Virus record (IMG/VR): IMGVR_UViG_3300036790_000468
Location: 32,001 to 96,000 of that record
Source of the DNA: a virus
Strand: one strand, 5' to 3'
DNA: 64,000 nucleotides
Each line of letters begins with the position of its first letter. Positions within the stretch are counted from its first letter, which is position 1. Both the position numbers and the translations under genes were made by a program. Shown piece by piece: positions 7,605 through 60,065 of the stretch. The notes beneath the pieces are model-generated. The model was not told the origin of the DNA and searched no databases. It worked only from the letters and a program-made list of their open reading frames with translations.

Positions 7605-7605
7605 G

Positions 7606-12034: not shown

Positions 12035-12135
12035 GGGAGACTCCAGCTGTTGTTTAGCGCCGACCGGCCCGGATCAACCGCGAGCCGGTCGGCAGTCCTG
12101 AGAGGCAGCCCTAGTCGGCTGCCAGGTCACGCTGT

Positions 12136-15798: not shown

Positions 15799-15926
15799 CA
15801 GGGTTCGTGCGCGGGGCGCCGCGTGACGCCCCCTGGTAACCTGACTGAACACTCAAACCTCACATTCGTGAGTCGGCGGCCTCCTGGTGGCTCAGGGGGC
15901 CGCAACCTTTTTCTCCTGGTGGCGGC

Positions 15927-16555: not shown

Positions 16556-16837
16556 GGAGGCTCCTGGATTCAGCGACAGAAAGAATTGCCGTCGCGAACG
16601 ACAGTAGTCCTGTCCTTCAGGAAAGTGCAAGACCTCAGTGTCGCGAGCGTGTCACGGCGCGCGAAGTGAGAGAGGGGAGTGTGCATCGTTGCACGCCACC
16701 AGCGGCGATGCCGTTCGGACATGCTCGAGGCCTGAGGCCGTTTGCCGACAGGACGTCCGGGGAGGCAACCAGTGCCAGTCATGGTGCGGATAGGATTTGT
16801 TCCTGACAGAACAACCCTCGGCGCTGGAAGGCGACCC

Positions 16838-17332
16838 GTGGCAAGTGACGCACAACCGCAGGAACCGGTGGACTGGGCCACGTGGCTACGCACCGCCCTG
16901 AACACCGCCGGCATGACCGCCGCCGACCTCTCGCGCACCGGCGTCGTCAAGTCCGAGTCGACCATCTCGAAGTGGCTGCGCGGCCCAGGCACCCCCGATG
17001 ACGCCGACACCGTGATCGCGGTCGCGCACGCGGTCGGCCAGCCCAACGCCATTGCCGCCTTGGAGGCCTCCGGGCGGCTCGCCCTGGCCGATGCGATCCG
17101 CAGCCAGATCCGCCAGGCGTACGAGGACGAGGCGCTGGTGAAGATCCGCACAAGCCCCGGCCTCGGAGAGCGTGAGCGCAAGTCGATCGCCGAGAACTAC
17201 CAGCGCCGGCGCGCGGACGCGGTGCGCATGATGGAGTACGAGATCGCCGAGGCGATGGCCAAAACGCGCCGCGGCCAGGACGGGCGCATCTCCCTAGCGA
17301 CCGACGACCTCGAGGACGCTGCCGAGGCGTAG
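16838..17332 (+). CDS. Immunity repressor (XRE-family HTH)
   Basis: WLRTALNTAGMTAADLSRTGVVKSESTISKWLRG; same strand as int and upstream of it. Confidence 0.8.
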   Translation: MASDAQPQEPVDWATWLRTALNTAGMTAADLSRTGVVKSESTISKWLRGPGTPDDADTVIAVAHAVGQPNAIAALEASGRLALADAIRSQIRQAYEDEALVKIRTSPGLGERERKSIAENYQRRRADAVRMMEYEIAEAMAKTRRGQDGRISLATDDLEDAAEA

Positions 17333-17496
17333 CGGCACTGATGTGCGGAATCATCACTCTTTCCAGTGAAAACGCCACCGTCCGGCACAGGGTCGTCCTA
17401 ATGTAAATAGCCTCAGAGGCCCGGGGCTCGGGCGGCGCAAGCCGCACGCCCGCGAGGCCGAGCGGTACGGAGGATACGGCGGTCAGGAGTCGCGAC

Positions 17497-18180
17497 ATGA
17501 TGTCAGCGGGAGAGTGTTCACCTAAGGTGAAAGCGACCAGCATCCTGGTGCGTGCAAGCCTCACGGTAGCCGTGCTCTCCTGGAGCGCGGCAACGGCACT
17601 GATCTGCCTGGATGCGGTGGGCAACGGGTATCTCGGCGTTTCGGTCGGGATTGTGACCACATGGCTGATGGGCGTCGGCGCCCTGTTCCTGATCCTGCCG
17701 ATGGCCTCTGGCGGCGACCAAAGGATCAATACGCTGATCTCCGAGGGGCTTCCCCTCGGCGACCCCGCACTCGACACCCTCCTCGTCGGAGGCACCCCGC
17801 GCCGTTGGCGCGCGATCCCCTGGGTGGGGACCGCCCTGACCGCCCTCGCCACCACAGCATGGACAGTAAGCCTGATCTACTCGATCCAGCTCGGCCTCGG
17901 CGTCTACCACCTTCCCCCCGACATCAGCCTCGGAGTACTGCGTCTGCTGATGGCCACCGCCGTCTGGCCCACCGTCGGACGCGTCGCCGGCACCGCCGAC
18001 GCCCGCCAGCGCGCCGTCTACGAGGTCGCCTGCGACGCCCACCACGCACTGCGCGGAAACCTCGCAGCCTGCGAACGCGACGTGGCCGCCTCCCTGCGCG
18101 TCCTTGAAGGCGGGGGCGCGCGCAGCCCGTGGCGCTCCCCCCGAAACGGTGGAAACGGTCGCGTGGCTCCCGGAGCATAA
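17497..18180 (+). CDS. Membrane protein (about 4 TM), possible lysogen-expressed exclusion protein
   Basis: Four hydrophobic segments; between repressor and integrase. Confidence 0.6.
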   Translation: MMSAGECSPKVKATSILVRASLTVAVLSWSAATALICLDAVGNGYLGVSVGIVTTWLMGVGALFLILPMASGGDQRINTLISEGLPLGDPALDTLLVGGTPRRWRAIPWVGTALTALATTAWTVSLIYSIQLGLGVYHLPPDISLGVLRLLMATAVWPTVGRVAGTADARQRAVYEVACDAHHALRGNLAACERDVAASLRVLEGGGARSPWRSPRNGGNGRVAPGA

Positions 18181-18185
18181 GGAGC

Positions 18186-19562
18186 ATGGGATACGCAGAG
18201 CGCTCCGGGAAGTTCGAGAACGGCAAGCCGAAGTACCGCGCGCGCTGGCAGTTGCCCGAGCGCACCGAGAAGGGGCGCCGCAAGGAGGGGCACGAGGACG
18301 GCTTCACCGACCCGGACTCCGCCCGGCAGTACGCGAACGACCAGGAAGCGCTGATCCGCGCAGGGCTGTACTTCGACCCGAGCGCCGGGAAGATAAGCCT
18401 CGCCGAGTACTTCGACCTGTGGCTCCCGATCCAAAAGGTCAAGCCAGGAACGAAACTCACCTACCGGCAGTACTTCAACCGGGAGATCAAACCCGCGTGG
18501 GGCGGCACACCCCTGGTGGAGATCAAGACCATGCGCCTCATGCAGTGGCTCGGCGCACTCAACGACCCGCAATCCCCGCGCAGACTGTCCAAATCGGCGA
18601 TCAACCTCGTCGAAACCATCCTCAACGGCATGTTCGCGCTCGCCGTCTACGAGGACCGCATCCGCAAGTCCCCGATCCCGCCTCCCTCGGCCGGCGGCCG
18701 AGGGGGCGACGGCTACAAGCCGGTGCGTGAGGGGCAGATCTTCACCCGCGACGAGTTCGCAGCCCTCCTGGCGAACCTCGCCACCTGGCACGACGTCGTG
18801 TTCTGCATCACCATGCTCTTCCTCGGCACCCGCGTCTCGGAGACCGCGGCTGTGTGCCGCAGCAAACTGAAACTGCAGGTGCCCAGGTTCCCCGGCGAAC
18901 TGTTCGAAGGCACGTATCTGCTAGATCCACTGACCGGCCAGCTCGCCAAGGACGAGTACTACGTCCTCGACTTCGCCTCACCGAAGTCAGGCCCCGGGCG
19001 CCTGCTGGACCTGCCACCCTTCCACGTCGCCCTGCTCGCCGACTGGATCGGGCGCATTCCGAAAGATCGCGACCGGCTCTTCGCCGCGCCGATGGGCGGC
19101 ATGCTGCGCGTGAACGAATGGAACGCCCACGTCTTCCGCCCGGCCTGCGACGGACGTGAGGCGTACGCCAGTCCGCACGGGCGCAACTTCCACCCGGCCA
19201 TCGCGCCTGCCTGCCCGGGTAGAGTCACCCACGACTTCAAGCACACCGCAAAATCGATCATGGCCGACGCTCGCGTGAACGAGATCATGCAGAACTACTC
19301 GCTCGGGCACCGCGAGCAGGGATCCTCGGCCCCCTACAAGCACCCCACGCCCAAGATGCGCCAGGAGCGGCTCGACGCCCTCCAGGGGATCTGGGAGGAG
19401 TGGGCCATCGAGCTCACGGAGCTCCCCGCGTGGCACGCCAAGGACGGCCCCGGCACGCGCCGCTCGGAGCTCCCGGCGCCCCGGTTCGCGGACCCCGCCA
19501 CCGTGCTTCAGTCCGTGTCGACTCCGGTTCTACTCCAAGTCGATCAGCCGACGCTTTTCTAG
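18186..19562 (+). CDS. int: Tyrosine integrase
   Basis: Arm-binding N-terminus (KYRARW...DGF), GTRVSE, SPKS, HDFKH, LGH, APYKHP. Confidence 0.92.
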   Translation: MGYAERSGKFENGKPKYRARWQLPERTEKGRRKEGHEDGFTDPDSARQYANDQEALIRAGLYFDPSAGKISLAEYFDLWLPIQKVKPGTKLTYRQYFNREIKPAWGGTPLVEIKTMRLMQWLGALNDPQSPRRLSKSAINLVETILNGMFALAVYEDRIRKSPIPPPSAGGRGGDGYKPVREGQIFTRDEFAALLANLATWHDVVFCITMLFLGTRVSETAAVCRSKLKLQVPRFPGELFEGTYLLDPLTGQLAKDEYYVLDFASPKSGPGRLLDLPPFHVALLADWIGRIPKDRDRLFAAPMGGMLRVNEWNAHVFRPACDGREAYASPHGRNFHPAIAPACPGRVTHDFKHTAKSIMADARVNEIMQNYSLGHREQGSSAPYKHPTPKMRQERLDALQGIWEEWAIELTELPAWHAKDGPGTRRSELPAPRFADPATVLQSVSTPVLLQVDQPTLF

Positions 19563-19839
19563 CGTCCGGACGATGGCAAAGTGGCACGTTGTACCTATCA
19601 ATGCCATACCGTGGTGTCTCGCTCAAAGTGGAACGACTACTTCACGAGGGCGGCGATGCCCGCGCTGCGGGTGGCCGACTTCAACATGTCCTCGGTGTCT
19701 CAGGCGAGCTGACCCGGTCTCGGCCTGCGGGGGAGGCTGTGCCGCTTCCTGTTCGATCGGTGCGCTCCGGTTCGTTAGCGTGCGTTCGCGTGCGTCCCGG
19801 GGCGTCCGCGCGCCATGATCCACTCCAAAATCACTCCAG
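19520..19839. promoter_or_regulatory. Putative attP with paired arm-type sites
   Basis: Two tandem ACTCC(A) pairs, each at 11-bp spacing (19521/19532 and 19822/19833), flanking a non-coding region after int; core not identified. Confidence 0.55.
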
Positions 19840-20049
19840 ATCTTGGCCGAATCACGGGGCTGCGACCTGCGGGAAATCGCGACGCGGACGGACGCCCGCT
19901 CCGGCGCATCCGAGGTCGGTGATCTTCGACGAGGGGGCGGCGAGCGCCGTGCCTCCACCCCTGCTGCGCCCGTTGCCCGATGCGCCACCGATCTCGACCA
20001 CGGCGGCGTATCCTCCCCGTGTACCGGCCGTCACAGGTAGGAGGGGACG

Positions 20050-20505
20050 ATGACCGGAGGGGACGGCATAGTCATCGGCGCCGTGGCCACGTTCGTGGCG
20101 ATGCGCTACGTGATGGGGGTCAGGGCTCATCGCCGCCGCCAAGAGCGTCTGCGCCGGGCCCGAGCCGAAGGGCGCGGGCTCCTCGCGGCCCAGGCCTCCG
20201 CGGCGGCGAGCCGGTCGCCAGCGCTCGCCGTGGACCTGCAGCGCCCGCAGCCTCATCCACCGACCGACGCGGTGCCCCCCGAGTATCTGTTGGCCCAGGC
20301 AGCGAAGCTCGTGGTCCAGACGCAGTACGGGTCGGTGAGGCTGCTCGAGCGCAGGCTGCGCCTGGACCGGTCCGAGGCCGAGTCCTTGATGGGCAAGCTC
20401 GAGTCGCGCGGGATCGTCGGGCCCGGCGAGGGGCGTGCGGCGCGCGACGTGCTGGTGCCGCCGGACGGATGGGAGGAGCTGTGCGGTGCCTTGGAGCAGT
20501 CCTAG
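20050..20505 (+). CDS. Membrane-anchored FtsK gamma-domain protein
   Basis: N-terminal TM; LLAQAAKLVVQTQYGSVRLLERRLRL...MGKLESRGIVGPGEGRAARDVL matches the FtsK gamma consensus. Confidence 0.85.
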   Translation: MTGGDGIVIGAVATFVAMRYVMGVRAHRRRQERLRRARAEGRGLLAAQASAAASRSPALAVDLQRPQPHPPTDAVPPEYLLAQAAKLVVQTQYGSVRLLERRLRLDRSEAESLMGKLESRGIVGPGEGRAARDVLVPPDGWEELCGALEQS

Positions 20506-21065
20506 ACCGCGCCGCACTCCGCAGCCATGCGTGAAATCGCGGCCTCGACCTCGTCCCACGGGTAGATCGGGACCCCCGTGCGCCCGTCCGGGCCCGGGAT
20601 CCGCGTCGAGGGGTGGCCGAAGCCGCCCGTGAACCTCACACCGGCGCCGCGCAGGGTAGCGATGCTCGCTGCGGCGGCCGGGTGCTGGGCGAGGGGGGCG
20701 TTGACCCAGGGCACCGCCGTGATCGGCACGCCGGAGCCGAGCCCTTCGTTGATCAAGCCCATGGCGAGGGTGTCGGAGATCCCGGCCGACCACTTGTTCA
20801 AACTATTGAACGTCAGCGGGCTGACAAGGAATGCGTCGGCGGCTGGAAGCGCCTCGGTCTCCTCCGGGCGCCGGTAGTCCGATCTGACCGGGAATCCCGT
20901 GGCTGCCTCGACCTGCGCCACCTCGCCGATGAACCGCACCGCCATCGGGGTCGGCACGACGCACACCGCGCTGAAGCCGGCCGCCGTGGCCATCGAGACG
21001 GCGCGCGGCGCCTCTCCCGCGGCGCGCGCTCCGCATACCACGACGTACAAGCACCGCTCCGCCAC
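20502..21065 (-). CDS. HFCD-family flavoprotein
   Basis: LYVVVCGA...VVPTPMA...ADAFLVSPLTFNSLNKWSAGISDTLA...PWVN. Confidence 0.85.
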   Translation of the reverse strand: MAERCLYVVVCGARAAGEAPRAVSMATAAGFSAVCVVPTPMAVRFIGEVAQVEAATGFPVRSDYRRPEETEALPAADAFLVSPLTFNSLNKWSAGISDTLAMGLINEGLGSGVPITAVPWVNAPLAQHPAAAASIATLRGAGVRFTGGFGHPSTRIPGPDGRTGVPIYPWDEVEAAISRMAAECGAV

Positions 21066-21141
21066 AATTCCTCCGAGAGCCGGGTCCGTTTGGACGCTCG
21101 GCGTGACACTATCCCGGTAGAGACCTCGAGTGCGAAAGCTG

Positions 21142-22350
21142 ATGTCGATGCCTGAGATCCTGTTTCAGGAGACGCCCGGCGACCGGGTCAAGATGCTGCG
21201 CAAACGCGCCGGGCTGACGCAGCAGGAGCTCGCGCTGCAGGTGGACCGCACCCAGGGGTGGGTATCCCAGGTCGAGCGCAGCAAATTCGATCTCGATCAG
21301 GTCTCCATCGTCAACTCGCTCGCGCGCGCGCTTCACGCCCACCCCCGCGAGATCCTCGGCGAGCCCGGCGTCGAGGACGGCGGGCACCGCGGACTCGAAT
21401 CGGCCAACGAGCTCCTGCGCCGATTGCGCCGGTTGGATCTGCCCCCGAACACCGACCTGCATCGGCCGCTCCCCGAGGTGGAGAAGGACTCGCACAAGGT
21501 CGCTGCTCTGCGCGGGGCCGCGGAATACACCGCGATGGGGTCACCGACCGTGGCCCTCTTCGAGGACCTGCACGCCGCGTGCGCCGATCCGTCGCCGAAA
21601 ACGCGCGAGCAGGCGTTCAGGCTTCTGACCTTCGCCTGCAAGGAGGCGCACTCCTTCGGGTACGGGCTGAACCATCCGCACCTGGTCGAGGTGGCAACGC
21701 TGCGGGCACGCTGGTGCGCGCAGCAGTCGGACGACCCGCTGCTCTCGGCGCTCGCCGACTACATGGCAGCGCGCGACGCGTGGACGACAGCGGACTGGGA
21801 GGATGCGAACCTGCTCGTCGACCGGGCCTTGTACACGGTGGAGTCATCGGACGCGGGGCGCGCCGCACGCGCGTCGATGGCCGGCGCGCTGCACCTACGC
21901 GCCGCGATCACCGCTGCGCGCACCGGTAACGGCGACGAGGCCTACGCCCGGCTCGACGCCGCGGCCGACGCCGCGCACGAACTCGACAACCAGGCCGACC
22001 CGTACCTCAACTGCTTCTCGACAGGCAACGTGCAGATCCACCGAGTCGCGGTCGCCGTCGAGCTCGGCGACGGCGCCGAGGCGGTGCGCGCATCGAGAGG
22101 CCTGGTCATCCCGAAGGATCTGCCGCGTTCGCGCGCCGCGCACCACTTCCTCGACACCGCGCGCGGCTGGGTGTGGGTAGGGGAGACGGAGCGCGGCCTG
22201 GCAGCGCTCGAGCGCGCGGACCGTCTCGCACCTCAGTTCGTGCGCAATCACCCGATGGCCAGGGCCACCGTGCGTTCGCTGCTGCGGGCAGAGAAGCGCT
22301 CCACTCGTGAGCGGCTGCGGAGCATGGCGACGCGCGTGGGTGTCGCCTGA
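21142..22350 (+). CDS. XRE-family HTH regulator with helical (TPR-like) C-terminus
   Basis: GDRVKMLRKRAGLTQQELALQVDRTQGWVSQVER; typical actinomycete architecture. Confidence 0.88.
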   Translation: MSMPEILFQETPGDRVKMLRKRAGLTQQELALQVDRTQGWVSQVERSKFDLDQVSIVNSLARALHAHPREILGEPGVEDGGHRGLESANELLRRLRRLDLPPNTDLHRPLPEVEKDSHKVAALRGAAEYTAMGSPTVALFEDLHAACADPSPKTREQAFRLLTFACKEAHSFGYGLNHPHLVEVATLRARWCAQQSDDPLLSALADYMAARDAWTTADWEDANLLVDRALYTVESSDAGRAARASMAGALHLRAAITAARTGNGDEAYARLDAAADAAHELDNQADPYLNCFSTGNVQIHRVAVAVELGDGAEAVRASRGLVIPKDLPRSRAAHHFLDTARGWVWVGETERGLAALERADRLAPQFVRNHPMARATVRSLLRAEKRSTRERLRSMATRVGVA

Positions 22351-22444
22351 TCAGAGGAATCTGACTCCGTATTAGCCCGGCTAATATTTCGCGCCTCCTG
22401 CGGTTCTACGGTGCCAACAGCACCTGCCGAAGGAGGCGCGCTCC

Positions 22445-22861
22445 ATGGCACTACCCGCCGAACGCCGCACACTGAAGTCGAGCGACGACGCCGCCGCGCT
22501 TGCGCAGTGGGCCGTCCACGCCGCTCAATCCCTCGACCCCGCGCTGCCGGCCCAGGCCGTGCGCGATGTCGGAGCCGTGGTGCACGCCCTGGTCGAGAAC
22601 GCGCAGCGCCACGGCACGCCGCCGATCACTGTCGAGGTGGCGGTCGCCAGCGTTCTCGTCGTCGAGGTGAGCGACCACGGCCCGGGGGCCCCGGTGATGC
22701 GCCCAGACCGAACCGGGGCCCTCGCCACCGTCGTCGATGTCCTCGCCATCCAGTGGGATGTGCTCGAGTTCGAGGGCGGCAAGACCGTATTCGCCGCCGT
22801 CGCGATCCCGGAACTCTCCTCAGCCCTTCCTGCCGCACGCACACCGCGGAGCCACCCGTGA
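22445..22861 (+). CDS. HATPase_c anti-sigma-factor-like protein
   Basis: LVENAQRHG (N box), VEVSDHGPG (G1), WDV...GGKTVFA; G2 box degenerate. Confidence 0.8.
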   Translation: MALPAERRTLKSSDDAAALAQWAVHAAQSLDPALPAQAVRDVGAVVHALVENAQRHGTPPITVEVAVASVLVVEVSDHGPGAPVMRPDRTGALATVVDVLAIQWDVLEFEGGKTVFAAVAIPELSSALPAARTPRSHP

Positions 22862-23235
22862 GCGAATACACCAACCTGAACAACCGATACCTCGAGCCCG
22901 TCTGGATCGAAGGGGAGTGGGCCTGCGTCCACGCCCCCGGCGCCCTCGACTACCTGACCCAGGAGCGCGCCCGTTCCTACCTGATCGCCGCGGCGGCCAC
23001 GTCGCCGACGGGCAACCTCGCCGTCTACCTCGGCAACACCGCCTTCTGCGACTCGGCGGGCCTCGGGCTCCTTATCGGCGCGCGCAAACGCGCAGCAGCG
23101 CGCGGCGCCCGGGTCGCTCTCGTCGCGACGCCGCCCCTCCTGCTGGAGCGGCTGGCGCTCACGGGACTCAAGGATTGCTTCGAGCTGGTGCAGAGCATCG
23201 CCGAACTCACCGACGCGTCATCGAGGAGCTCCTGA
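22858..23235 (+). CDS. STAS-domain anti-anti-sigma factor
   Basis: GALDY...FCDSAGLGLL...LALTGL with the conserved phospho-Ser position. Confidence 0.88.
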   Translation: MSEYTNLNNRYLEPVWIEGEWACVHAPGALDYLTQERARSYLIAAAATSPTGNLAVYLGNTAFCDSAGLGLLIGARKRAAARGARVALVATPPLLLERLALTGLKDCFELVQSIAELTDASSRSS

Positions 23236-23624
23236 TGGCGTTCGACGTTACCGGCGCCTCTCGCGGCGCCGCATCCGAGGGCCGAGGCCGGCCCGATGTC
23301 GCTGCGCCGTTGACGGCCCCCGAGCTCGCCCAGGCGCTGCGCGAGGCCGCTATGGTGGCGCACGGCGACCGGCGCCACGATCTCCTCACCGTGCTGAACG
23401 TCTTGGCAAGCGACCATCGCCCCGACCTGCGCGAACTACCCACGCTCTGGCAGATCACGGACGCCGTCCGAGCCGTCTCGCTCTCGCCTGGCGCCCCGTA
23501 TGCAGGGTCTGCGAACGCCGCGCAGCGCTGGTGCTGGCAGCACGGGAAGAGTCTCGCTGACCTTCTCCTGGAGGCAGCGGTGCGGATCGAAGGCGGCGCA
23601 ACTGGCCGTGAGGGCGCCGGATGA
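23235..23624 (+). CDS. Hypothetical protein
   Basis: TGATG coupling and GAGGAG RBS. Confidence 0.6.
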   Translation: MAFDVTGASRGAASEGRGRPDVAAPLTAPELAQALREAAMVAHGDRRHDLLTVLNVLASDHRPDLRELPTLWQITDAVRAVSLSPGAPYAGSANAAQRWCWQHGKSLADLLLEAAVRIEGGATGREGAG

Positions 23625-23639
23625 ACGGGCGCCTCGCGG

Positions 23640-23894
23640 TCAGTCCCGTTGTCGCCGGCGCGCGAGGCGGTTGGCGGTCATCACGTTCATCGGCACCTGC
23701 TTGGCGACCGCCCGCTCGGATTCCCCCGTCTGCTCACGCTGCGCTCGGATGGCTGCGCCGATCGAGTCCCTGACTTTCGGGAGCGCGTCGAGCAATTCGC
23801 GCTCCAGTGCGAGCCCCGCGCGCGCTCTCTGCAGGGGATCGGGAATCGCCGCGACCTGCTCGATCCACGACGCGAGTTCAGATTCCCGGGACAC
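23640..23894 (-). CDS. Small HTH protein, candidate repressor of the transfer operon
   Basis: SERAVAKQVPMNVMTANRLA; divergent from the DUF2637-traB operon. Confidence 0.6.
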   Translation of the reverse strand: MSRESELASWIEQVAAIPDPLQRARAGLALERELLDALPKVRDSIGAAIRAQREQTGESERAVAKQVPMNVMTANRLARRRQRD

Positions 23895-23933
23895 AAGAAA
23901 AGAGATTAGCGCCGCAGAGCGCCGATCCGTGCA

Positions 23934-23947
23934 TAACACCCCTGTTA
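23934..23947. promoter_or_regulatory. Inverted repeat TAACA-N4-TGTTA, candidate operator
   Basis: AT-rich palindrome in the short divergent promoter region. Confidence 0.4.
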
Positions 23948-23973
23948 CACTGCGCCGCTCGAAGGAGGACACC

Positions 23974-24867
23974 ATGGCCACACCATCCAGCACCACCCCG
24001 CAGCGCGTCCTCGCCGTGGCGCGCATCGGCGGCGGCCTGTCCCTGGTCGCCGCCGCCATGATCAGCTTCGAGGGCCTCAACGGCCTCGGCGCCCTGATCG
24101 GCATCCACCCCTCGTGGCTGCTCCCGCTCGCGATCGACATCTACGCCGTCACCTGCGCCGTGGTCGCGCTGAACCTCCCCGCGGGGCACGCCGTGCGCGG
24201 GAGCGCCGTGGGCAACGCGGCACTCGGCCTGCTGATGTCGATGGGCGGCAACTCCACCTACCGCGGCATGACCCACGGCTGGTCCGGTCACAACATCATC
24301 CTGATGGTCGCGGACGCGTGCCCCAGCCTGATCGTCGAGAGACTGATCCACCTCGTCGGCGTCCTCGCGCGCGGCGCCGCGACCACCGAGACACGCGACG
24401 AGGCCGAGGCAGCCGCGCCCGCGCCAGTCCAGGCGCGCCGCGCCCAGCACACGCCTGTCGCTACCGCGCCGCGCCACGCCGCCAACGCCCAGCCGCTACC
24501 GGGCCCGGCGCCGCAACCGACCGCTACCGCTACCACCGCGCCCCCGACTGCTACCGAGCCCGCGCCCACCGCGCCGCCGCCCACCCCCACTACCGCGCCC
24601 GCGACCACCACCGCGCCCACCGCGCCCGGCCGAACGACCTTGAGCACCCCGACCGCGCGCCAGCAGAAGATCCGCAACCTGATCCTCGAGCGCGGCCGCG
24701 AGAACGTCGACGGCGCCATGGTCGGCGAAGCCCTCGGCGTGCACCGCTCCAACGGCCGCCTCGCCCTCAAGAAGTTCCTCGAAGACCTCGACGCGGGCCT
24801 CGTCTCGCTCAACGCGTCGTCGTCGTTGTCGTCGTCACCCGCAGTCGTCCCCGCGGCAACGCCGTGA
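23974..24867 (+). CDS. DUF2637/Spd-type membrane protein with C-terminal HTH
   Basis: ISFEGLNGLG...SWLLPLAIDIYAV...SMGGN; P/T/A linker; GAMVGEALGVHRSNGR. Confidence 0.8.
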   Translation: MATPSSTTPQRVLAVARIGGGLSLVAAAMISFEGLNGLGALIGIHPSWLLPLAIDIYAVTCAVVALNLPAGHAVRGSAVGNAALGLLMSMGGNSTYRGMTHGWSGHNIILMVADACPSLIVERLIHLVGVLARGAATTETRDEAEAAAPAPVQARRAQHTPVATAPRHAANAQPLPGPAPQPTATATTAPPTATEPAPTAPPPTPTTAPATTTAPTAPGRTTLSTPTARQQKIRNLILERGRENVDGAMVGEALGVHRSNGRLALKKFLEDLDAGLVSLNASSSLSSSPAVVPAATP

Positions 24868-24937
24868 CCGGCCAGAACCCAGGCGACGACACCCGGCGAC
24901 GACAACGACGACGCACGACGACAAGGACGACGACGAC

Positions 24938-26365
24938 ATGAGCAGCGACACCACCGGAGCCGCGGCCCCCGAACCGAAACCGGGCCGGGGCCCCCGGCAC
25001 CGCACCACCCGGCACGTTCTGGTGCACGGCACCGGAGCCACCGGGGTCTCTGCGCTGGCCGCCGCCGGCCACGCCTTCGGCCCGGCCGGGATAGCCGCAG
25101 CCGCCGGAGGCGGCGTGCTCATAGCCTGCGGCGGATACGCGCTGCGCCGGACCTCGAAGTCCCGCGGCCGCAGCCAGCGTCCGGCCCCGCGCCACCGCGT
25201 GCGCCGCCCGCAGACCGCGACCGGCGCACGCACCTCGGCGGGACTGCGTCGCGACCCGGGCGCGACCCCGCGACGCCCCGGCACCTCCGCGACCGGGGCG
25301 TCGCGGGGTCGCGCCGTACCGGCCGCGACCGGGTCACGTCGCGTCGCGGGACTGCGTCGCGCACAAGCCCCGTCGCGCACCGACGCGACGAAGGGCGGCC
25401 GGCGGGTTGCGACCACCGTTCGGCGACCGCGACCGATCTCGACCGCGCCCCGCGCCGCCGGTTCCTCGCGACGCGGCAAGAGCGCGACCGCCACGCGACC
25501 CGGTCGCGCCGGCGGAACCGGGCCCGTCTCGACGCGCCGGGCCCGGGAGGCCGCGACGCGCACCCGCGTCCGCCGCGTCGCAAAGCGCCCCGCGCCGCGC
25601 ATTCCCGCGCCTCCAACCGGAGCGCCGCGCGCTACCGCGGGCCGCCGCCCGACGCGACCCCTGGCCAGCACGCCACGCGGGCGCCGCGCTGCCCGGCGGC
25701 TGCGCCGGCGCGCCGCCCGCGCCTGGCGCTTCACCTCGGCTGGCGCCAAGGCCTCGCGCCCATACCTGCGACTTCGCCCGCCCGCCCAACACGGCAAGCC
25801 GCGGCTGAAAGCGGCCGCACGCCGCCAGCCGGCGCCGGGCGCCAAGAAGCCCCCGGCGAACAAAGATACGAACACCCCGCGCGCGAACAAGGCCCCGGCC
25901 AGCGCCACCGGCAGCCAGAAGGCAGCCAGAGTCCCTGCGCCGCGCCGCCCTGCAGCCAAGCCCGGGCGCCCCATCACACCCCCCGGCCGAGAGAAGGCAA
26001 CCGTGTCCGAAGCTGATATTTCGCCCGGCGGCATCACCGCCATCATCGACTCGATCCACCAGCACCTCGACGGCTTCGAACCCGACTCCGCGCTGGCGAT
26101 CCTCGGATTCCTCTCCGGGTTCGAGTCGCTCTACACCGAGCTCGGCGGCGCGCTGCTGCGCCTCGGCGACCGCCTGGGCAGCGACTACCCGATCGACCGC
26201 TCCGTCGTCGAGCACCTCCACGACATGGGCGCACACACCCTCACCCTCGGCGCGTGGGGCGCCCAGACACACCACCTGGCCCGCGCTGCCCACGAGACCG
26301 AAATCCAGCGCATCGAGCAGCCCCGCCCGCGCGAAGGCATGTGGGACGTGGACCGCTACAACTAG
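24938..26365 (+). CDS. Transfer-associated protein: TM, Arg/Thr-rich repeat region and C-terminal TraA-like domain (possible internal start at 26003)
   Basis: C-terminus ...YPIDRSVVEHL...HETEIQRIEQPRPREGMWDV, typical of genes preceding actinomycete traB. Confidence 0.7.
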   Translation: MSSDTTGAAAPEPKPGRGPRHRTTRHVLVHGTGATGVSALAAAGHAFGPAGIAAAAGGGVLIACGGYALRRTSKSRGRSQRPAPRHRVRRPQTATGARTSAGLRRDPGATPRRPGTSATGASRGRAVPAATGSRRVAGLRRAQAPSRTDATKGGRRVATTVRRPRPISTAPRAAGSSRRGKSATATRPGRAGGTGPVSTRRAREAATRTRVRRVAKRPAPRIPAPPTGAPRATAGRRPTRPLASTPRGRRAARRLRRRAARAWRFTSAGAKASRPYLRLRPPAQHGKPRLKAAARRQPAPGAKKPPANKDTNTPRANKAPASATGSQKAARVPAPRRPAAKPGRPITPPGREKATVSEADISPGGITAIIDSIHQHLDGFEPDSALAILGFLSGFESLYTELGGALLRLGDRLGSDYPIDRSVVEHLHDMGAHTLTLGAWGAQTHHLARAAHETEIQRIEQPRPREGMWDVDRYN

Positions 26366-26427
26366 CCACCCGAGCCGGCCGGGCGCGTCAGAGTGCGCGC
26401 GGCCCCAATCTTCGAAGGGATGGGCGG

Positions 26428-28422
26428 ATGACCCAGAAGGAAAGCTGGCTCGAGGTCGAGTGGCGCCACCACGACCTCTCGACCCCGGCCCTGACCGCAG
26501 TGAGCCTCTACGCGCTCGAGGCCGCCGCGAGCCTCGTGCTCCACGATGGCCAGGTCGACGGCATCGCGGCGATCGGGGCGCTGGCTACCGCGAGCGTGGT
26601 CTGGACGCGCTCGTGCGCCTTCTGGATGGCGGTCTACCTCACCGCCGCCACGCTCGTGACCCTTGCCTGGATCCTCTACGCGGAGCACGCCAGCCCGTTC
26701 ACCGCCCGCGCCCTGACGTTCGCGGCCGGCGCGGCCGTCGGGCTCGGCGTGCTCTACCAGGGTGCCGTGCGCGCCGAACGCGCGGAGAGGCAGGAGACGG
26801 ACCGGCGCCTGGCTGCGCGTGCTGAGGCCGGGGAGTGGCCCAGCGTCTTCGCCGCCCTCGGCATCCCCGGCGTGGAACTCGTCGAGGAGAGCGAGTTCCG
26901 TGCCGGGCGCACCGCGACGCTGCGCCTGCCCGCCCACGGCCGCGCCACCTTCACCAGGGTCGCAGCCCTGGCCGAGCGGCTCGAGACGGTCCTGGACCTG
27001 CCCGGCGGGTCGGTGAAGTTCCGGCAGGGGGAGACGGCACGCGGGTTCCATGTGGACATCCACACCCGCGATGTCCTGGCCGAGGACCTCCCCTTCGAGT
27101 TCGAGACCAGCCCAACGAGCATCAGCGAGCCCTTCGACATCGGCCGCGACGTGTTCGGCGAAGACATCATGGTCCTGATTCGCGAGATCCGCGCCGCGAT
27201 CTTCGCGCCGCCCGGATCCGGCAAATCCAACCTGCTCAACGTCCTGATCGCCCGGCTGCTGCGGTGTGTCGACGTCGTGATCTGGGCCATCGACTTCAAG
27301 GGCGGCCGCATGATCAAACCCTGGCTGCAGCCCTGGTTCGAGGGCGTCACCGACCGGCCAGTGATCGACTGGGTCGCCACCACCCCCCGCGAAGCCCAGC
27401 TGCTGCTCCAGGGGCTCAAGGACGTGATCGAGCATCGATCCGGCCGCGGCGTCGGCGAGAAGATCACCCCCAGCGCGCGACAGCCCGCGATCATCCTGAT
27501 CTCGGACGAAGGGTCCTCTGTCGTCGGGCTGGACGCCGTTGCCGGGCGCGCCCTGGCAACCCTCGTGAAGGACATCATCGCCCTGGGCCGATCCGAAGCC
27601 GTCGACGCGATCCTCTGCTTCCTTCGCGCGAGCGTACCCATGACCGGCACCAGCGACCTCAAGGCGCTCTCCAAGCTGCGCATCACCCTCGGCGCCACCA
27701 GCGCGGCCGACGCGACCGCCGCCACCGACAACCCCGGCATGGGCGGCGAGGTCACAGCGTTCGAACACCCGGGCACGATGCTGGTGCAGAAAGGGCGCAA
27801 GAACGTGCGGATCGGCAAGTCCCTGCGCATGGAGGATCCCGACGTGCCCTACGTCGCAAGGATTTACTCCGACCGGCGCCCGGCCCTCGAACCCGACGCC
27901 GAGCAGGCTCTGGGAGCGGTCTACGCCGAACGCTGGAGCCTGGCGCGCTGCGGGCACCTCCTGCCGTTCGAGCGGCAGCAGGAGCTCGGATTCGATCCGA
28001 AGACGGCCGCGGCCGCCGTCGCGCAGGAGGCCGCCGCGCACCCCGCAGCGCCGGCCGCCCCGCTGACGCTGCCAACGATCCCGCCGCCGCCGGCGAACGC
28101 ACGCCCCGCCTACAAGACCGTGCAGGGCGAGCCGATACCGCGCGCGCTCGACGACCAAGCGGTCGAGGACCTTTTCGCCGGCCTGCGCGGCCAGGTCGAC
28201 GAGGCTCTGAGTTCCGTGCGCATCGGGCCAGAGCGGATGCTCGCGCTCGTGCGTGCGGCCGGCCGAGAGGGGATCTCCCCGAAGTCCTTGACCGAGCAGC
28301 TCAACGCGGAGGACATCGGCGTCGGGCGCCAAGCCGTGCACGACTGGCTCACCGAGGCAATCAAAGACGGACTGATCATCCGGCGACTGCGCGGCGAGTA
28401 CGTGGCGGCCGAGTATGCCTGA
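26428..28422 (+). CDS. traB: TraB-like FtsK/SpoIIIE conjugative DNA translocase
   Basis: N-terminal TMs, Walker A APPGSGKS, WAIDFKGG, Walker B IILISDE, GRSEAV, C-terminal winged HTH. Confidence 0.88.
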   Translation: MTQKESWLEVEWRHHDLSTPALTAVSLYALEAAASLVLHDGQVDGIAAIGALATASVVWTRSCAFWMAVYLTAATLVTLAWILYAEHASPFTARALTFAAGAAVGLGVLYQGAVRAERAERQETDRRLAARAEAGEWPSVFAALGIPGVELVEESEFRAGRTATLRLPAHGRATFTRVAALAERLETVLDLPGGSVKFRQGETARGFHVDIHTRDVLAEDLPFEFETSPTSISEPFDIGRDVFGEDIMVLIREIRAAIFAPPGSGKSNLLNVLIARLLRCVDVVIWAIDFKGGRMIKPWLQPWFEGVTDRPVIDWVATTPREAQLLLQGLKDVIEHRSGRGVGEKITPSARQPAIILISDEGSSVVGLDAVAGRALATLVKDIIALGRSEAVDAILCFLRASVPMTGTSDLKALSKLRITLGATSAADATAATDNPGMGGEVTAFEHPGTMLVQKGRKNVRIGKSLRMEDPDVPYVARIYSDRRPALEPDAEQALGAVYAERWSLARCGHLLPFERQQELGFDPKTAAAAVAQEAAAHPAAPAAPLTLPTIPPPPANARPAYKTVQGEPIPRALDDQAVEDLFAGLRGQVDEALSSVRIGPERMLALVRAAGREGISPKSLTEQLNAEDIGVGRQAVHDWLTEAIKDGLIIRRLRGEYVAAEYA

Positions 28423-28600
28423 GATCTCCTACGCCGCGGCCGCGCGTGTTGGGCTGCTGCTGCGGGCCGTCCAGGCCGGCGACAGGGCATTGGTGGCTGA
28501 GATGCTGCTCTCCATCCCCGAGGCCGAGGTCGGGGCGGTCGAGGCCCGGCTGCGCAGATTCGGCGCCGACCCCGCGATACTGCTCGCTCCCACTACGTAG
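28415..28600 (+). CDS. Small hypothetical protein
   Basis: Overlaps the traB stop. Confidence 0.5.
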   Translation: MPEISYAAAARVGLLLRAVQAGDRALVAEMLLSIPEAEVGAVEARLRRFGADPAILLAPTT

Positions 28601-28629
28601 TGTCCGCGCGAGAGTGCTACCGTAGAGCC

Positions 28630-28709
28630 TTGCTCCCCGGCTTGCCGGGGATGAACCCGGAGCGGTTGTTGCTTCCCGCTCTCTCCCCGCCTCGCGCGGG
28701 GATGGCATA
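28630..28709 (+). CRISPR. Two type I-E CRISPR-repeat-like units with a 21-nt spacer, no cas genes
   Basis: TTGCTCCCCGGCTTGCCGGGGATGAACCC and TCTCTCCCCGCCTCGCGCGGGGATGGCATA versus the canonical I-E repeat GTGTTCCCCGCGCCAGCGGGGATAAACCG. Confidence 0.6.
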
Positions 28710-28793
28710 CGACTTCGAGCCCCTGCCGAGGACCATCCGGCAGGGGCTTCGTCGTGAGCGGTGACGAAGGCGTAGCCCAGGCACGACGAAAGC

Positions 28794-28817
28794 GGCCCCA
28801 CCCCGAAGGGTGGGGCC
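28794..28817 (-). terminator. Intrinsic terminator of the late operon
   Basis: GGCCCCACCC-CGAA-GGGTGGGGCC hairpin followed on the minus strand by GCTTTCGTCGT. Confidence 0.75.
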
Positions 28818-28833
28818 ATCGCTCTGCCGGGGC

Positions 28834-29643
28834 TCAGTGCCGACGACGTCGCCCTCCGCGCCGCGACCGCCCGGGGCGCCGCCACCGCCGGCCACCAGTC
28901 GGCAGCGCCCGATGATCGCGTGCGGGCACGAGCGTCGCCAGCGCCACGGAGACCAGTGGCAACGACGGCGCCGGGTGCAGCGGCGCGTCCGCTCCGCTCG
29001 CTCCCCCCGTCGGCGTGCCGCTCGCACCCGAGGGCGACGCGCTCGCCACCGGGGTGCACGCGTAGTTCGGCGCCGGCTGCTGGGTGTCGAGCGGGCACGT
29101 GTAGACGTTGCCCTGCGGATCGGTCAGCGAGAACCCGGCCGGCGGTGAACCCGGCGCGCCGCTCGGGCCGGGCGCTCCCTGCTGGCCCGCCGGTCCCTGC
29201 GCGCCTTCGGCCCCGGCCGCGCCGGGTTCGCCGGGGGATCCCGGTGCGCCCGGTGATCCTGCGGCGCCCGGGCTCCCCGGCGGTCCCGCCGGGCCGCTCG
29301 GCCCGCTCACGCCGGGGCCGCCGATGGCGCCGGGCGAACCGGCCACGCCGCTCGCGCCCACCGCACCCGGAGCGCCAGCGGCTCCGGCCGGCCCGGCCGG
29401 TCCGGCCGCGCCCTGGATGATCTGCGCCGGCGCCGGGGGAACCGGGGTCACCCCGTGCGCGCGCAGCTGCGCCTCAGCCGTCGTCAGATTCTCGGCCAGC
29501 GCATCGATCGCCCTGCCCTGCGTGTCGATCGCGGCGTGCTGGGAGGCGAGCGTCGAGATCACCCAGACTCCGAGGGCGGCCGCGAGCACCGCTGCGAGCG
29601 CCACCCACCACTTGCGCAGCACCACGCCGGCATGTCGCATCAC
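28834..29643 (-). CDS. Membrane-anchored collagen-like protein of the lysis cassette
   Basis: TM, coiled coil, long Gly-X-Y run, two C-terminal Cys. Confidence 0.8.
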
Positions 29644-29645
29644 GA

Positions 29646-30092
29646 TCAGTGGCCTCCCTGGCCGAGCAGCGCGATGAGCACCGCGGCGATGGTGCCGATC
29701 GCGATCACGGCCGCGATGATGTTCGCGGTGCGGCTGCTGCCGTTGCTCTCCTCGGACCGCGAGCGCTCGCGCTCAGCGGCGAGCTTCCCGTCGAACTCCG
29801 CGACGATGGCGTCCAGGCGCCGCAGGAACTCCTGGCGCATGCTCGCGAGCGCAGCCTCGAGCTCCGCGTTCTTCGCGATCAGCGCGCTCTTGCGCTCCAG
29901 GCTCGTGGACTCGACCTGCGCGAAACGCGCGAGCATATCGGCTTTGAGATCGGCCACGACCGCGGCCAGGGCGCGGTGCTGGGCGTCCCACAGCTCGCTC
30001 GGCACCATCGAGCGGGCCAGCTCCATCAGGCGCATCTCGTGCCGGTCGAGCGTCCTGCGGATCTCTCCGGCGCCCATCTCCTCCTCAGCCAC
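29646..30092 (-). CDS. Coiled-coil protein with C-terminal TM (lysis accessory)
   Basis: Follows the endolysin; C-terminal hydrophobic helix. Confidence 0.7.
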
Positions 30093-30140
30093 GTGCGATC
30101 TCCGGTCTCTCGGCCGAGGGCGACGGCAGACGATCTCAGG

Positions 30141-31133
30141 TCAGGGGTGGATCTTGAGCTTCGCGCTCGTGCGCGGCCCGACGATCCCGTCGACCAGCAG
30201 CCGCGACTCGCGCTGGAACGCTGAGACCTCCTGCGCGGTGAGCGGACCGGCCACCGAGTCGGTGCCCCCGGCACCGAGGTGCTCGGCCGCGAGGGCCCGC
30301 TGGACCACCAGGGTCCGGGCGACCAGCGCGCCCCACGTGTGCTCGCCGACGATCCCGTCGACCAGGAGCGCCGCCGCCTTCTGATACGCCTTGACGGCAG
30401 CGAGGGTGTCGGGCCCGAACCGGGCGTCGACGCCCTTCGGATCCTGCCCGCCGAGCATCAGCGAGCGCTGCAGCACCTCCACCCAGTACCCGGACTCCCC
30501 GAAGGACACCGTCGGCCGGCCCGCCGCGGCCGCCGACGGCGCGGGGGCCGGGGGCGACGGCATCCACAGCCCCGCGGTGGAGGCGGCCTCGTCCAGGTCG
30601 ACGTCGACCCCGCCGAGAGTCGTGCCGTTGAGCACCTGCCGGATGGTGTACGCCGGCGCCCACTGACCCGAGGACCAGGCGTAGGTCTGCCACAGGTAGT
30701 CGTAGCCCGCGGCGTGCGCCGCCTCGATCACCTCGTAGTCGCCGTACACCCCGACCAGAGCCTTGGAGCCCTCGGCGTCCGAGGCTCCGTGCAGGTAGTC
30801 GAGCACCGACCCGATCTGGCCCGTCGTCGCATCCAGGTCGACCGCGAAGTAGATCGGCAGGCCGGCCGGGAACCCGAGGGCGCTGGCCTGGGCGCGCGCG
30901 GTCCCCGCCTCCGCCAGGCCCTGGGCGTACCCGGCGAGCGGGGAGACACCGGTGGTCTCCCACACCAGCCCGATCCCGATCCCGACGGCGTGCAGGCCGT
31001 CGCGCTCCGAAGTGGTCAGGTTCTTGCTCGGGTCGGCGCTCACGTAGCGCATCGCGTAGGCGATTCCCGCGGCCTTGAGAGCGGCGGTGGACGGAAGGTC
31101 GAAGGCGTAGTCGACGCCGCGAACAGTGGTCAT
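30141..31133 (-). CDS. Endolysin: DUF1906/Rv2525c-like glycoside hydrolase plus two peptidoglycan-binding domains
   Basis: GVDY...RYVS...KNLT...LVWE...PIYFAVD...GVYG...WQTYAWS; DGIVGEHTW and DGIVGPRT. Confidence 0.9.
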   Translation of the reverse strand: MTTVRGVDYAFDLPSTAALKAAGIAYAMRYVSADPSKNLTTSERDGLHAVGIGIGLVWETTGVSPLAGYAQGLAEAGTARAQASALGFPAGLPIYFAVDLDATTGQIGSVLDYLHGASDAEGSKALVGVYGDYEVIEAAHAAGYDYLWQTYAWSSGQWAPAYTIRQVLNGTTLGGVDVDLDEAASTAGLWMPSPPAPAPSAAAAGRPTVSFGESGYWVEVLQRSLMLGGQDPKGVDARFGPDTLAAVKAYQKAAALLVDGIVGEHTWGALVARTLVVQRALAAEHLGAGGTDSVAGPLTAQEVSAFQRESRLLVDGIVGPRTSAKLKIHP

Positions 31134-31622
31134 CTAGCTCTCCGGGGGATTGGTGGTGTCAGCGGACTGTGCCTTTGCGATCTCGGCGCGGGCCTTCGCA
31201 GCGACCTGGTCTACGTCCACGGCGAGCCGTTCGGCGACCGCCGCGATCACGGCGTCCTGGACGGCGAGGTGGATGGCAGCTTCGTGCTGGCCGTGCAGGA
31301 TCGCCTCGGTGTCGGCGAAGGCCTGGATGTTGCGCCGCTCGGCCGCCCGGCCGAGGACCACGGCGCCGACCATCAAGAGCGGAAGACTCCACAGCTGGAT
31401 CCAGTTGGACCAGTACAGGAGCGTGGCCTGCTCCGTCGTGAACACGGCGCCCAGCGCACCGTAGATCACGAATACGTAGGTGCACCACATCGTGCCGAAC
31501 ACGATCGTCGCCCGCGCCGCTACCCGGTCGTTGACCGAGACGCGCGTCTGCGCGAGGGTGACAGGGCCCTGAGCCGTGCGCCTCTCGACGTGCGGGTGCG
31601 GCGCGTGCTTGTAGAGGGTCAC
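31134..31622 (-). CDS. DUF1003-like membrane protein, candidate holin
   Basis: NDRVA...FGTMW, two TMs, [11 protein letters not shown]; abuts the endolysin. Confidence 0.7.
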
Positions 31623-32149
31623 TTCGCCGCCGCCCTCAGCATATGCGTGTGGATCACATCGACGCGGGCGCGCGCCTCGGCGGCGACGTGCGCGTCGCGG
31701 ATGACGGTGAGCTGGTTGTCCTGCAGCGACTCGCCGCTCCGCGACCAGTTCGTCGACCCGGTCACCACGTCCAGGCCGTCGACGATCACCAGTTTCATGT
31801 GCATGATCGCGCCGCGCTCGCTACGGCCGGTGGCGATCGAGTTGCCCGGGAAGGAGGACTTCGCCAGGAGCGCGCGCTCGTGAACGCCCCCGGCCTGCGA
31901 GGAGTCGAGGGTGAGCTGCACGAAGCAGTTCTCCGCGTCGAGCTGCTCGTGCAGCGCGGCCGCGAGCTCCTCGTCGTCGAACCCGTACATCGCGACCACC
32001 AGCGAGCGCTGCGCGGAGGCGATGAGTTCCACCAGGACGCCGTGGACGTCGTCAACGGGGCTGTAGAAGGTGCGCGTGGCGGCCGGGTAGCCTGGCGCGA
32101 ACCCGCCGGCCTTGTGCTTGTCGAGTGCGGCGAGGTCAGTGAGCGGCAC
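31619..32149 (-). CDS. Phospholipase D/Nuc-family protein (single HKD motif)
   Basis: FYSP...VAMYGF...MHMKLVIVD...TGSTNWS...QDN. Confidence 0.9.
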
Positions 32150-60037: not shown

Positions 60038-60065
60038 GTGCCGACCGGTTCCGTCGGCCGGCGGG

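Follow-up and report, generated by a model that had tools for sequence, protein, structure and literature searches.

Introduction

Zhong and colleagues reportedly described in J Bacteriol in 2010 a functional tra locus on the Streptomyces plasmid-phage pZL12/phiZL12, one of the closest described counterparts of the element treated here. Transfer of pZL12 requires its main tra gene along with two neighbouring genes, according to passages of PMC3583192, and parts of PMC4487206 credit both pZL12 and its 86-kb relative pSLE1, which also carries integrases, with ParA/ParB and RepA. The clt sites described so far consist of 8-bp repeats, specific to each plasmid and set in arrays, to which the cognate TraB binds, and Thoma et al. 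(2015) suggested that homologues of Spd (SpdB2) on actinophages spread phage DNA (both from passages of PMC4447253). Here we analyse 64,000 nucleotides (hereafter the window) of the IMG/VR virus record IMGVR_UViG_3300036790_000468, in which a block at 23640-28600 encodes a TraB-like DNA translocase together with three further plus-strand genes (ORF1, ORF2 and ORF4) and a small divergent gene. With somewhat better than even confidence, we read this block as a double-stranded DNA (dsDNA) transfer module of the type found in Streptomyces plasmids and actinomycete integrative and conjugative elements (AICEs), conserved in large temperate phages of uncultured high-GC Actinomycetota; sequence, structural models and analogy suggest that it would transfer the circular phage genome through docking of TraB on a repeat array, assisted by ORF1, ORF2 and ORF4 in the manner of Spd helpers.

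The likeness to pZL12 (GQ919031 / NC_013420, 90,435 bp) lies in a single replicon of about 86-90 kb that unites a full set of tailed-phage genes with an FtsK-like tra gene, and in a locus of the same layout, consisting of a membrane protein, a large protein and an FtsK-like gene; in the element described here, the complete virion gene set is contiguous with the TraB block. The differences are that ORF1 and ORF2 have no match in pZL12, that ParA/ParB and RepA were not found by Pfam among the 73 open reading frames (ORFs) of the window and 67 of the remaining contig and window end, and that the element described here has a tyrosine integrase and looks integrative. With the plasmids pSVH1, pIJ101 and pSG5 and the pSAM2/SLP1-type AICEs it shares a single FtsK-like hexameric pump that is anchored in the membrane and recognises DNA through a C-terminal domain, here predicted from sequence, as well as a short repeat array, here a candidate for the element-specific one, and Spd-type helpers, here putative, in a translationally coupled operon with a divergent gene, here a candidate regulator (passages of PMC4447253). 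Unlike those systems, it has a divergent gene that is not of the GntR type (a related phage contig, G001, does have a GntR gene), lacks Rep and NUDIX genes, and is carried by a tailed-phage genome.

More distant comparisons concern the motor itself. FtsK/SpoIIIE and the clostridial TcpA of pCW3 have the same motor fold but different N- and C-terminal domains and genomic settings, FtsK reading FtsK-orienting polar sequences (KOPS) on the chromosome and TcpA acting alongside a relaxase and a type IV secretion system. The FtsK-family ATPases of cultured actinophages (Hiyaa, Spocter, Keanu, Galactica and Gilgamesh; Saccharomonospora PIS 136; Thermobifida P1312) align in tblastn at 27-32% identity, the matches covering 28-55% of the TraB query, over the motor domain. 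A survey of phage-plasmids (PMC7969092) does not mention Streptomyces in the passages searched, and among the matches listed by a full-text literature search no title or abstract opening described an integrative tailed phage with a TraB-clt module, which is a weak negative. The novelty implied by the initial annotation of this DNA was overstated, since the tra locus of pZL12/phiZL12 and the suggestion of Thoma et al. precede it. What distinguishes the present element from the known cases is that it is integrative and AICE-like, without partition genes, from a different host group, and with its repeat array embedded in a gene.

Results

A TraB-like translocase

Three hydrophobic segments are predicted near the N-terminus of the TraB-like protein (residues 20-38, 65-83 and 91-109), where the structural model has long helices. 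The Walker A motif GSGKS and the acidic Walker B position are invariant (G265, K266, S267 and E361) across 24 aligned homologues of 39-66% identity, and a family profile built from these homologues matched FtsK in all three of its PDB matches (best E 9.4e-9). The AlphaFold model, with a predicted local distance difference test score (pLDDT) of 83.1, most resembled the conjugative coupling protein TcpA and FtsK motors in Foldseek (TM-scores by target 0.64-0.70). At its C-terminus, helices 599-610, 618-627 and 634-646 are followed by strands 650-652 and 658-660, at a pLDDT of about 84-92, an arrangement that is predicted to form a winged helix. The protein also matches phrog_31069 ("FtsK/SpoIIIE-like", E 2.6e-43), and its sole NCBIfam match is plasmid_TraB (NF041214, E 7.3e-9), collinear over residues 60-338. 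The initial annotation had described a full TraB-like translocase with transmembrane segments, Walker A and B motifs and a winged helix; the motifs were found, and the transmembrane segments and winged helix are predicted. On sequence and model, the protein is an FtsK-family pump with the domain order of TraB.

The block is a resident part of the phage

A Logan contig of sequencing run X1 (22,092 bp, depth 43.9) covers window positions 12001-31721 with 0 differences, and an adjoining Logan contig (depth 46.8) continues from 31694; X1 is probably the source sample and Logan assembles the same reads, hence this support is not fully independent. Run X2, from another study, yielded identical scraps of 151-236 bp from the early, integrase, cargo, ORF2 and lysis parts. 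Most of the apparent joints among the Logan contigs, with sides of 20-23 nt, were treated as GC-rich noise from other organisms. The sequencing runs listed as containing this DNA included no RNA run.

A separate IMG/VR viral contig, G001 (59.6 kb, CheckV 78%), is collinear with the window phage. Its TraB, the C-terminal domain of its ORF2 and its ORF4 lie on the strand opposite the tail genes and are followed by a GntR gene, an integrase and early genes, so that the integrase-TraB-tail order of the window is repeated (identities in Table 1). A traB gene accompanying the same terminase and tail clade at the same locus, which the initial annotation had proposed to look for, is thus found in G001.

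Neither the block as a whole nor any part of it is flanked by direct repeats beyond chance level; the longest exact words shared by its flanks measure 11-12 nt, against a simulated mean of 11 and a maximum of 17. Imperfect flanking repeats were rejected as attachment (att) sites, being GC-rich, chance-like matches, and Rfam gave no match in 15500-30500 and hence no tRNA-like attP clue. Between 16868 and 28600, no Rep (RepSA, RepAM or prim-pol type) or NUDIX match was obtained with Pfam, NCBIfam or PHROGs, whereas the pair of an integrase and an FtsK-like Tra gene is present. The earlier statement that no second integrase, Rep or att boundary is visible agrees with this outcome within the window, which has one integrase, no Rep match and no att-like repeat longer than 12 nt; a second integrase, of the serine type, lies elsewhere on the full contig, outside the window. 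The Logan contig that spans the block, the lack of flanking repeats and the shared gene order in G001 likewise uphold the view that the block is neither a chimera nor a separately bounded AICE. Judged by these sequence comparisons, the TraB module is a resident, conserved part of the phage, and not an assembly artefact or a recent insertion.

A repeat array within ORF2

An unbiased k-mer scan located 20 of the 158 CGCGAC/GTCGCG words of the window within 25150-25600, inside ORF2. The full array of 21 words (Table 1) confirms the internal repeat arrays of the initial annotation. Its words occupy ORF2 codon phases 0, 1 and 2 at 2, 10 and 9 sites, respectively, and include a perfect 23-nt inverted repeat (25259-25281/25293-25315). 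First-order Markov simulations based on the local sequence (82% GC; 2000 runs) gave a mean of 5.1 and a maximum of 15 CGCGAC copies, against the 21 observed; such simulations cover the window and G001 only. Because both strands and all three codon phases contain the words, and their number exceeds simulations of local composition, the array is, at the sequence level, a DNA-level signal.

At the homologous place, G001 carries two clusters that together hold 32 TGCGAC words, and the core GCGAC is common to both phages. These clusters hold 13 and 19 words against simulated means of 0.57 and 0.74, and some hexamer equalled the observed count in 4 and 0 of the 2000 simulations, respectively. A locus-specific hexamer cluster is present within 4 kb upstream of traB (in one case 2.4 kb downstream) in 10 of 14 loci. 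Such clustering is expected of element-specific TraB recognition repeats, which makes the array a candidate clt, although its form (a hexamer, in both orientations, within the gene upstream) departs from that of described sites. The word GACCCGG, which we take to be part of the pSVH1 TraB recognition word, was rejected as a docking word, since it is unclustered near traB (51 copies in the window against 31 expected, 3 of them in the array region).

Relatives of the module

Among the candidates scored, 110 TraB homologues were found at E<=0.001, and searches with their alignment yielded 80 loci from metagenomes, 22 from genomes and 15 from IMG/VR. When genome and viral collections were scanned for TraB with patterns from a single protein, nothing was returned, homologues being recovered only through the alignment. 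No phage matched in a DNA search with 23400-28700, which gave two short matches to FtsK genes on small plasmids of Nocardiopsis and Actinomadura.

Two further contigs, G002 (97 kb) and G003 (129 kb, with overlapping ends), have tail, lysis, cargo and early genes in common with the window and have retained DUF2637, ORF2 and TraB at 40% identity, the module there adjoining homologues of window 60367-62026. In G002, a tyrosine integrase comes next after traB, and then an HTH_17 gene and a pair of tRNA-Glu genes (L110 15379-17421). The different genome position in G002 and G003 indicates that the module behaves as a movable cassette, and the arrangement of the HTH_17 gene, integrase and tRNAs in G002 relative to the window indicates that integrase, excisionase, tRNA and TraB parts have been shuffled between relatives. 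In the window, tRNA-Val and tRNA-Ala genes adjoin an HTH_17 excisionase-like gene (59964-60139 and 60367-60636).

More distant homologues (27-38%) occur in chromosomal AICE-like loci that have NUDIX and GntR genes and an integrase at the boundary, for example in Kribbella, Streptosporangium and Thermobifida, where chromosomal-type genes (phosphoenolpyruvate carboxykinase, PEPCK; luciferase-like monooxygenase) lie about 2 kb beyond the integrase; NUDIX was found in 3 of 11 related loci. In named genomes, the closest TraB relatives belong to metagenome-assembled genomes of Streptosporangiaceae and to Nocardiopsis, Thermobifida, Kribbella and Polymorphospora, not to Streptomyces. Together, the three phage contigs and the AICE-like homologues describe the module as an AICE-type cassette that is long resident, and occasionally relocated, in one large temperate phage family.

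The operon and its neighbours

The operon sits between the tyrosine integrase and the end of the late (virion and lysis) operon, and its location and features agree exactly with the coordinates first assigned (Table 1). Its position on the strand opposite the lytic genes, beside the integrase and regulators, fits expression apart from the lytic programme.

ORF1 has two to three transmembrane segments (residues 15-33, 51-69 and 111-129 in the 300-residue translation from 23965), a Pro/Thr/Ala-rich linker and a C-terminal helix-turn-helix (HTH)-like domain. It matches phrog_733 (E 4.2e-7), and the Pfam model DUF2637 (PF10935) gave no match even at E<=1. The ESM Atlas grouped ORF1 with DUF2637 clusters in 10 of its 10 best matches (score 0.91; structure TM 0.41-0.46), and Pfam recognises DUF2637 in the positional counterpart of ORF1 in 5 of 11 related loci (L014, L098, L109, L110 and, weakly, below the gathering score, L111). 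The designation "DUF2637/Spd-type" given at first thus lacks the backing of the Pfam model and draws on the Atlas grouping and these positional orthologues. An imperfect inverted repeat of 47-48 nt with runs of GTC/GAC triplets (24802-24951) extends across the ORF1 stop and the ORF2 start.

In ORF2, a basic, Arg/Ala/Pro/Thr-rich linker of roughly 300 amino acids (aa) without clear codon periodicity is followed by a C-terminal domain of 120 aa (26003-26365) with well-behaved periodicity. In 32 distinct related loci this domain immediately precedes traB; there it has an in-frame extension of 305-528 codons in 14, stands alone in 14 and is cut by contig ends in 4. Neither Pfam nor NCBIfam matched ORF2, and the ESM Atlas returned only unnamed actinobacterial and viral clusters; with no family match and no match to the pZL12 locus, the name "TraA-like" that it was first given is unsupported. 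The overlap of ORF4 with the traB stop codon suggests translational coupling, and ORF4 is also found downstream of traB elsewhere (72% identity in L109, 55% in L007). Directly 3' of the operon is a CRISPR-like repeat-spacer-repeat (28630-28709). The hairpin between the convergent TraB and late operons (-32.8 kcal/mol, z -3.6; 0 of 200 shuffles fold equally well) is likely a bidirectional terminator, and a promoter and terminator consensus scan found nothing above shuffles.

The small divergent gene has no match in Pfam, NCBIfam or PADLOC and no homologue in related loci at E<=1e-4. Its coding-type GC periodicity agrees with the gene that had been called there as a "divergent small repressor", but for want of a family match the word repressor was a guess; we regard it as a candidate regulator of the operon.

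Upstream, the integrase is followed by a regulatory and cargo stretch encoding an FtsK-gamma protein, a flavoprotein, a 406-aa HTH_31 regulator, an anti-sigma-type kinase, a STAS antagonist and a 128-aa ORF. In L008 (7009-9323), traB is followed by a trio of flavoprotein (CoaC-like), HTH_31 regulator and kinase at 72, 62 and 52% identity; G002 (23862-26900) has the flavoprotein, HTH_31 regulator and STAS genes; the full set of four occupies 20502-23235 in the window; and HTH_31 regulators of about 400 aa follow traB in the AICE-like loci L092, L096 and L098. Judging from these gene orders, the flavoprotein/HTH_31/kinase/STAS set travels with the TraB module. The first gene of the stretch (20050-20505) encodes a stand-alone 151-aa protein with an FtsK gamma domain, the KOPS-reading winged helix, and L117 has a 44% homologue some 1.4 kb downstream of its traB match. 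The protein is a possible second factor by which the module recognises DNA.

Table 1. Features of the window and its source contig, by window position unless marked, with the identity of the G001 counterpart
Feature	Position	Strand	Description	Identity in G001
TerL1	1378-2640	-	Second, unrelated large terminase (phrog_2)	
Tyrosine integrase	18186-19562	+	phrog_1, E 2.9e-35; Pfam N-terminal SAM-like domain; homologue in the same relative place in G001	30%
Regulatory/cargo genes	20050-23624	+ (flavoprotein -)	Pfam, PHROGs, NCBIfam	
Small divergent gene	23640-23912	-	~90 aa, start uncertain; HTH-like C-terminus; GC periodicity fits frame	
ORF1	23974-24867	+	DUF2637-like membrane protein (Spd-type helper); ATG at 23974; GC at third codon positions (GC3) 0.92	
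ORF2	24938-26365	+	475 aa; hydrophobic N-terminal segment, linker, conserved C-domain	56% (C-domain)
CGCGAC/GTCGCG array	25216-25658	both (13 +, 8 -)	21 words; candidate clt, putative TraB docking site	
TraB-like protein	26428-28422	+	664 aa; FtsK-family dsDNA translocase; membrane N-terminus, motor, C-terminal winged helix (predicted)	55%
ORF4	28415-28600	+	61 aa; overlaps traB stop codon	72%
Hairpin	28794-28817		GC-rich, perfect; between convergent TraB and late operons	
Virion set 2	28834-54981	-	Late operon of the TraB-bearing phage; Pfam, PHROGs; collinear homologues in G001	
Collagen-like membrane/fibre protein	28834-29643	-		
Endolysin	30141-31133	-		
Minor tail protein	32727-36509	-	1260 aa	47%
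Tape measure	36570-40943	-		
Neck/tail genes				31-57%
Protease/scaffold-like gene	48047-49846	-		
MuF	49881-50657	-		40%
Portal (set 2)	50654-53326	-		
TerL2	53437-54981	-		52-53%
YqaJ exonuclease				53%
VRR-NUC				53%
Serine integrase	contig 6826-8271		Outside the window	

Composition of the source contig

The source record has 127,504 bp at 70.5% GC, the window being its bases 32001-96000. Its ends overlap by 133 bp within a 12-bp coding tandem repeat of a DUF6745 gene (contig 1-400 and 127285-127504), and because this gene reads through the end junction the record behaves as a circle. Genes were called by a home-made method based on GC at codon positions, by which small genes were possibly missed, and were annotated with Pfam and PHROGs. 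By this annotation the contig holds two unrelated virion gene sets. The TraB-bearing phage has set 2, which besides the genes of Table 1 includes capsid-region genes, tail genes and a PLD-like gene; set 1, which the initial annotation had overlooked, starts with TerL1 and an HTH small-terminase-like gene (together 1378-3131, -) and runs leftward out of the window with a portal, an HK97-type capsid and tail genes.

A direct repeat of 876 bp, 99.1% identical and including a 759-bp core of 100% identity, occurs at window 3954-4829 and contig 122511-123383. Cutting at this repeat gives two circles, each with one terminase, virion set, lysis gene set and integrase: circle X (~86.5 kb) with the tyrosine integrase, TraB block, virion set 2, tRNAs, glycosyltransferases and a DDE transposase, and circle Y (~40.8 kb) with the serine integrase and virion set 1. 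The contig is quite probably a composite of a TraB phage of about 86 kb and a second phage of about 41 kb joined at the repeat, either as a true cointegrate or through a mis-join by the assembler; under either scenario, the TraB block, tyrosine integrase and virion set 2 belong together. The late operon of the TraB phage is complete; the "complete tailed-phage genome" of the initial annotation calls for correction, as the contig looks like two phages joined together.

The Logan contigs compared lie outside the 876-bp repeat and are uninformative on this question. Most of the genes that G001-G003 have in common with the contig lie in X. Genes of Y matched G001 in five cases (G26, G6, G10, G20 and G15), two of them (G6 and G20) at places also matched by the X genes G61 and G83, and G003 in the antirepressor (54%); homologues of the Y terminase, portal, capsid and serine integrase were not found in G001-G003. 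Relatives of TerL1 lie on contigs of up to 64 kb, several of 42-56 kb, and across 55 such loci gene matches numbered 177 to phage-Y genes, 6 to the repeat and 2 to phage-X genes. Their early regions are too diverged to decide the junction. In L182, a TerL1-type locus, a VRR-NUC homologue with 62% identity lies upstream of TerS, as in the contig, and this gene order mildly favours the contig as assembled.

Iteron-like arrays are present in the window at 9598-9774 (spread ~9591-9990), within or beside an unannotated 352-aa ORF (9097-10155, -), with units of 22 bp (x2.8, at 100%) and 35 bp (x2.9); the word GGGACCCTGAA and its complement occur there about 11-13 times in 400 bp. By their sequence these arrays are a candidate replication origin of the TraB phage. 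A Logan contig ends at about 9630, near them. Upstream of the late operon, the product of 58457-59080 contains a domain resembling Tad2 (Thoeris anti-defence 2; E 2.6e-20).

Discussion

At the sequence level, the module has all the hallmarks of the Streptomyces TraB/clt system, the array being a candidate clt, and a mechanism modelled on that system can be proposed. The phage genome would be present as a double-stranded circle, excised or replicating, on whose (C/T)GCGAC array membrane-anchored TraB hexamers would dock through their C-terminal winged helices. Powered by ATP, TraB would next move the entire genome through septal cross-walls or into an adjacent hypha, with ORF1 (DUF2637-like), ORF2 and ORF4 possibly acting as Spd-like membrane and DNA-binding helpers, and the integrase would fix the genome in the recipient.

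Several observations weigh against this proposal. The TraB-like protein scores 34.7 bits on NCBIfam plasmid_TraB, for which the cut-off is 800, and 12.3 bits on Pfam FtsK_SpoIIIE (PF01580), with a threshold of 24, a family matched by 6 of the 24 close homologues at E<=0.001; with curated-model scores so far under the cut-offs, it is a distant relative of TraB and not an equivalog. Its identity to pZL12.71c is only 27% over 48% of its length. Where the TraB-clt plasmids have 8-bp direct repeats, the array described here consists of a hexamer in both orientations, inside the probable coding region of ORF2 and upstream of traB. High GC eases the piling up of words, and 5 of the 2000 simulations gave 21 copies of some hexamer; of the 14 loci scanned, 4 have no specific cluster, only generic GC-rich words. 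The module is placed elsewhere in G002 and G003 and, in G002, stands beside its own integrase, HTH_17 gene and tRNA genes. Finally, the probable composite nature of the contig makes the size and topology of the transferring unit uncertain.

The same machinery could serve intramycelial spread or segregation only, carrying phage or prophage DNA across septal cross-walls into compartments or spores. Passages of PMC4447253 state that TraB and Spd proteins also drive intramycelial spreading, and the proposal made there for SpdB2 homologues on actinophages concerns the spread of phage DNA; FtsK-like translocases are, moreover, annotated in Streptomyces phages of 81-129 kb (Hiyaa, Spocter, Keanu, Galactica and Gilgamesh). 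Plasmids use the same proteins for both purposes, however, so that sequence alone does not separate this role from intercellular transfer, and the link to an integrase and the AICE-like relatives fit horizontal transfer too; we therefore consider a purely intramycelial role unlikely, if still a serious alternative. It is somewhat less probable that the plus-strand block of about 18186-28600 is an independent AICE that inserted into the phage genome, hitch-hikes on it and moves itself only. The tyrosine integrase, HTH_31 and anti-sigma regulators, DUF2637 protein and TraB are united here as they are in the AICE-like loci, all but the flavoprotein gene share one strand, flanked by two phage arms on the minus strand, and the arrangement in G002 described above would suit a self-contained element. 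Against this stand the lack of flanking direct repeats above chance and of Rep and NUDIX genes, and the fact that the tyrosine integrase is the only integrase of phage X. The same placement in G001, at only 55% TraB identity, further implies that any insertion is old and fixed, and TraB moves the whole replicon that bears clt, so that the phage would be carried in any case.

A module without any part in DNA transfer, serving in defence or superinfection exclusion or persisting as a silent remnant, appears very improbable. HerA-type defence ATPases do appear lower in the Foldseek list, and PADLOC gave a weak match to mad8 (E 1.9e-5, P-loop only), but no PADLOC family reaches beyond the Walker A region and FtsK and TcpA lead the structural and profile matches, while full-length conservation and the invariant motor residues of the 24 homologues argue against decay. 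We give hardly any credence to the idea that the junction of transfer genes and phage DNA is an assembly chimera. The contig does come from a soil metagenome and is probably composite elsewhere, at the repeat with the 759-bp identical core, yet the X1 Logan contig crosses the junction without differences, albeit from the same reads, and G001 repeats the arrangement.

Taken beyond the transfer module that we favour, a bolder reading is conceivable, though we think it more doubtful than probable: the lineage, large integrative tailed phages whose hosts are filamentous Actinomycetota, would be permanently fused with an AICE-type backbone (one integrase, regulators, DUF2637, ORF2 and TraB), the whole genome of 60-130 kb would be conjugative, and TraB would read a (C/T)GCGAC address array within the coding sequence of a partner gene and drive the double-stranded phage genome into adjacent hyphae, giving a second infection route without receptor or lysis and making temperate phages and AICEs a continuum.

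In summary, the element represents an additional, well-supported lineage and not a new concept, the principle having been preceded by pZL12. The paired arrays, CGCGAC in the window phage and TGCGAC in G001, bear on how TraB-type pumps read their address. If our interpretation is true, temperate phages of mycelial actinomycetes have two routes of spread, virions and direct dsDNA pumping; receptor mutations and anti-adsorption defences would not block such spread, host DNA could be mobilised, and the line drawn between prophage and AICE in genome annotation would be blurred.

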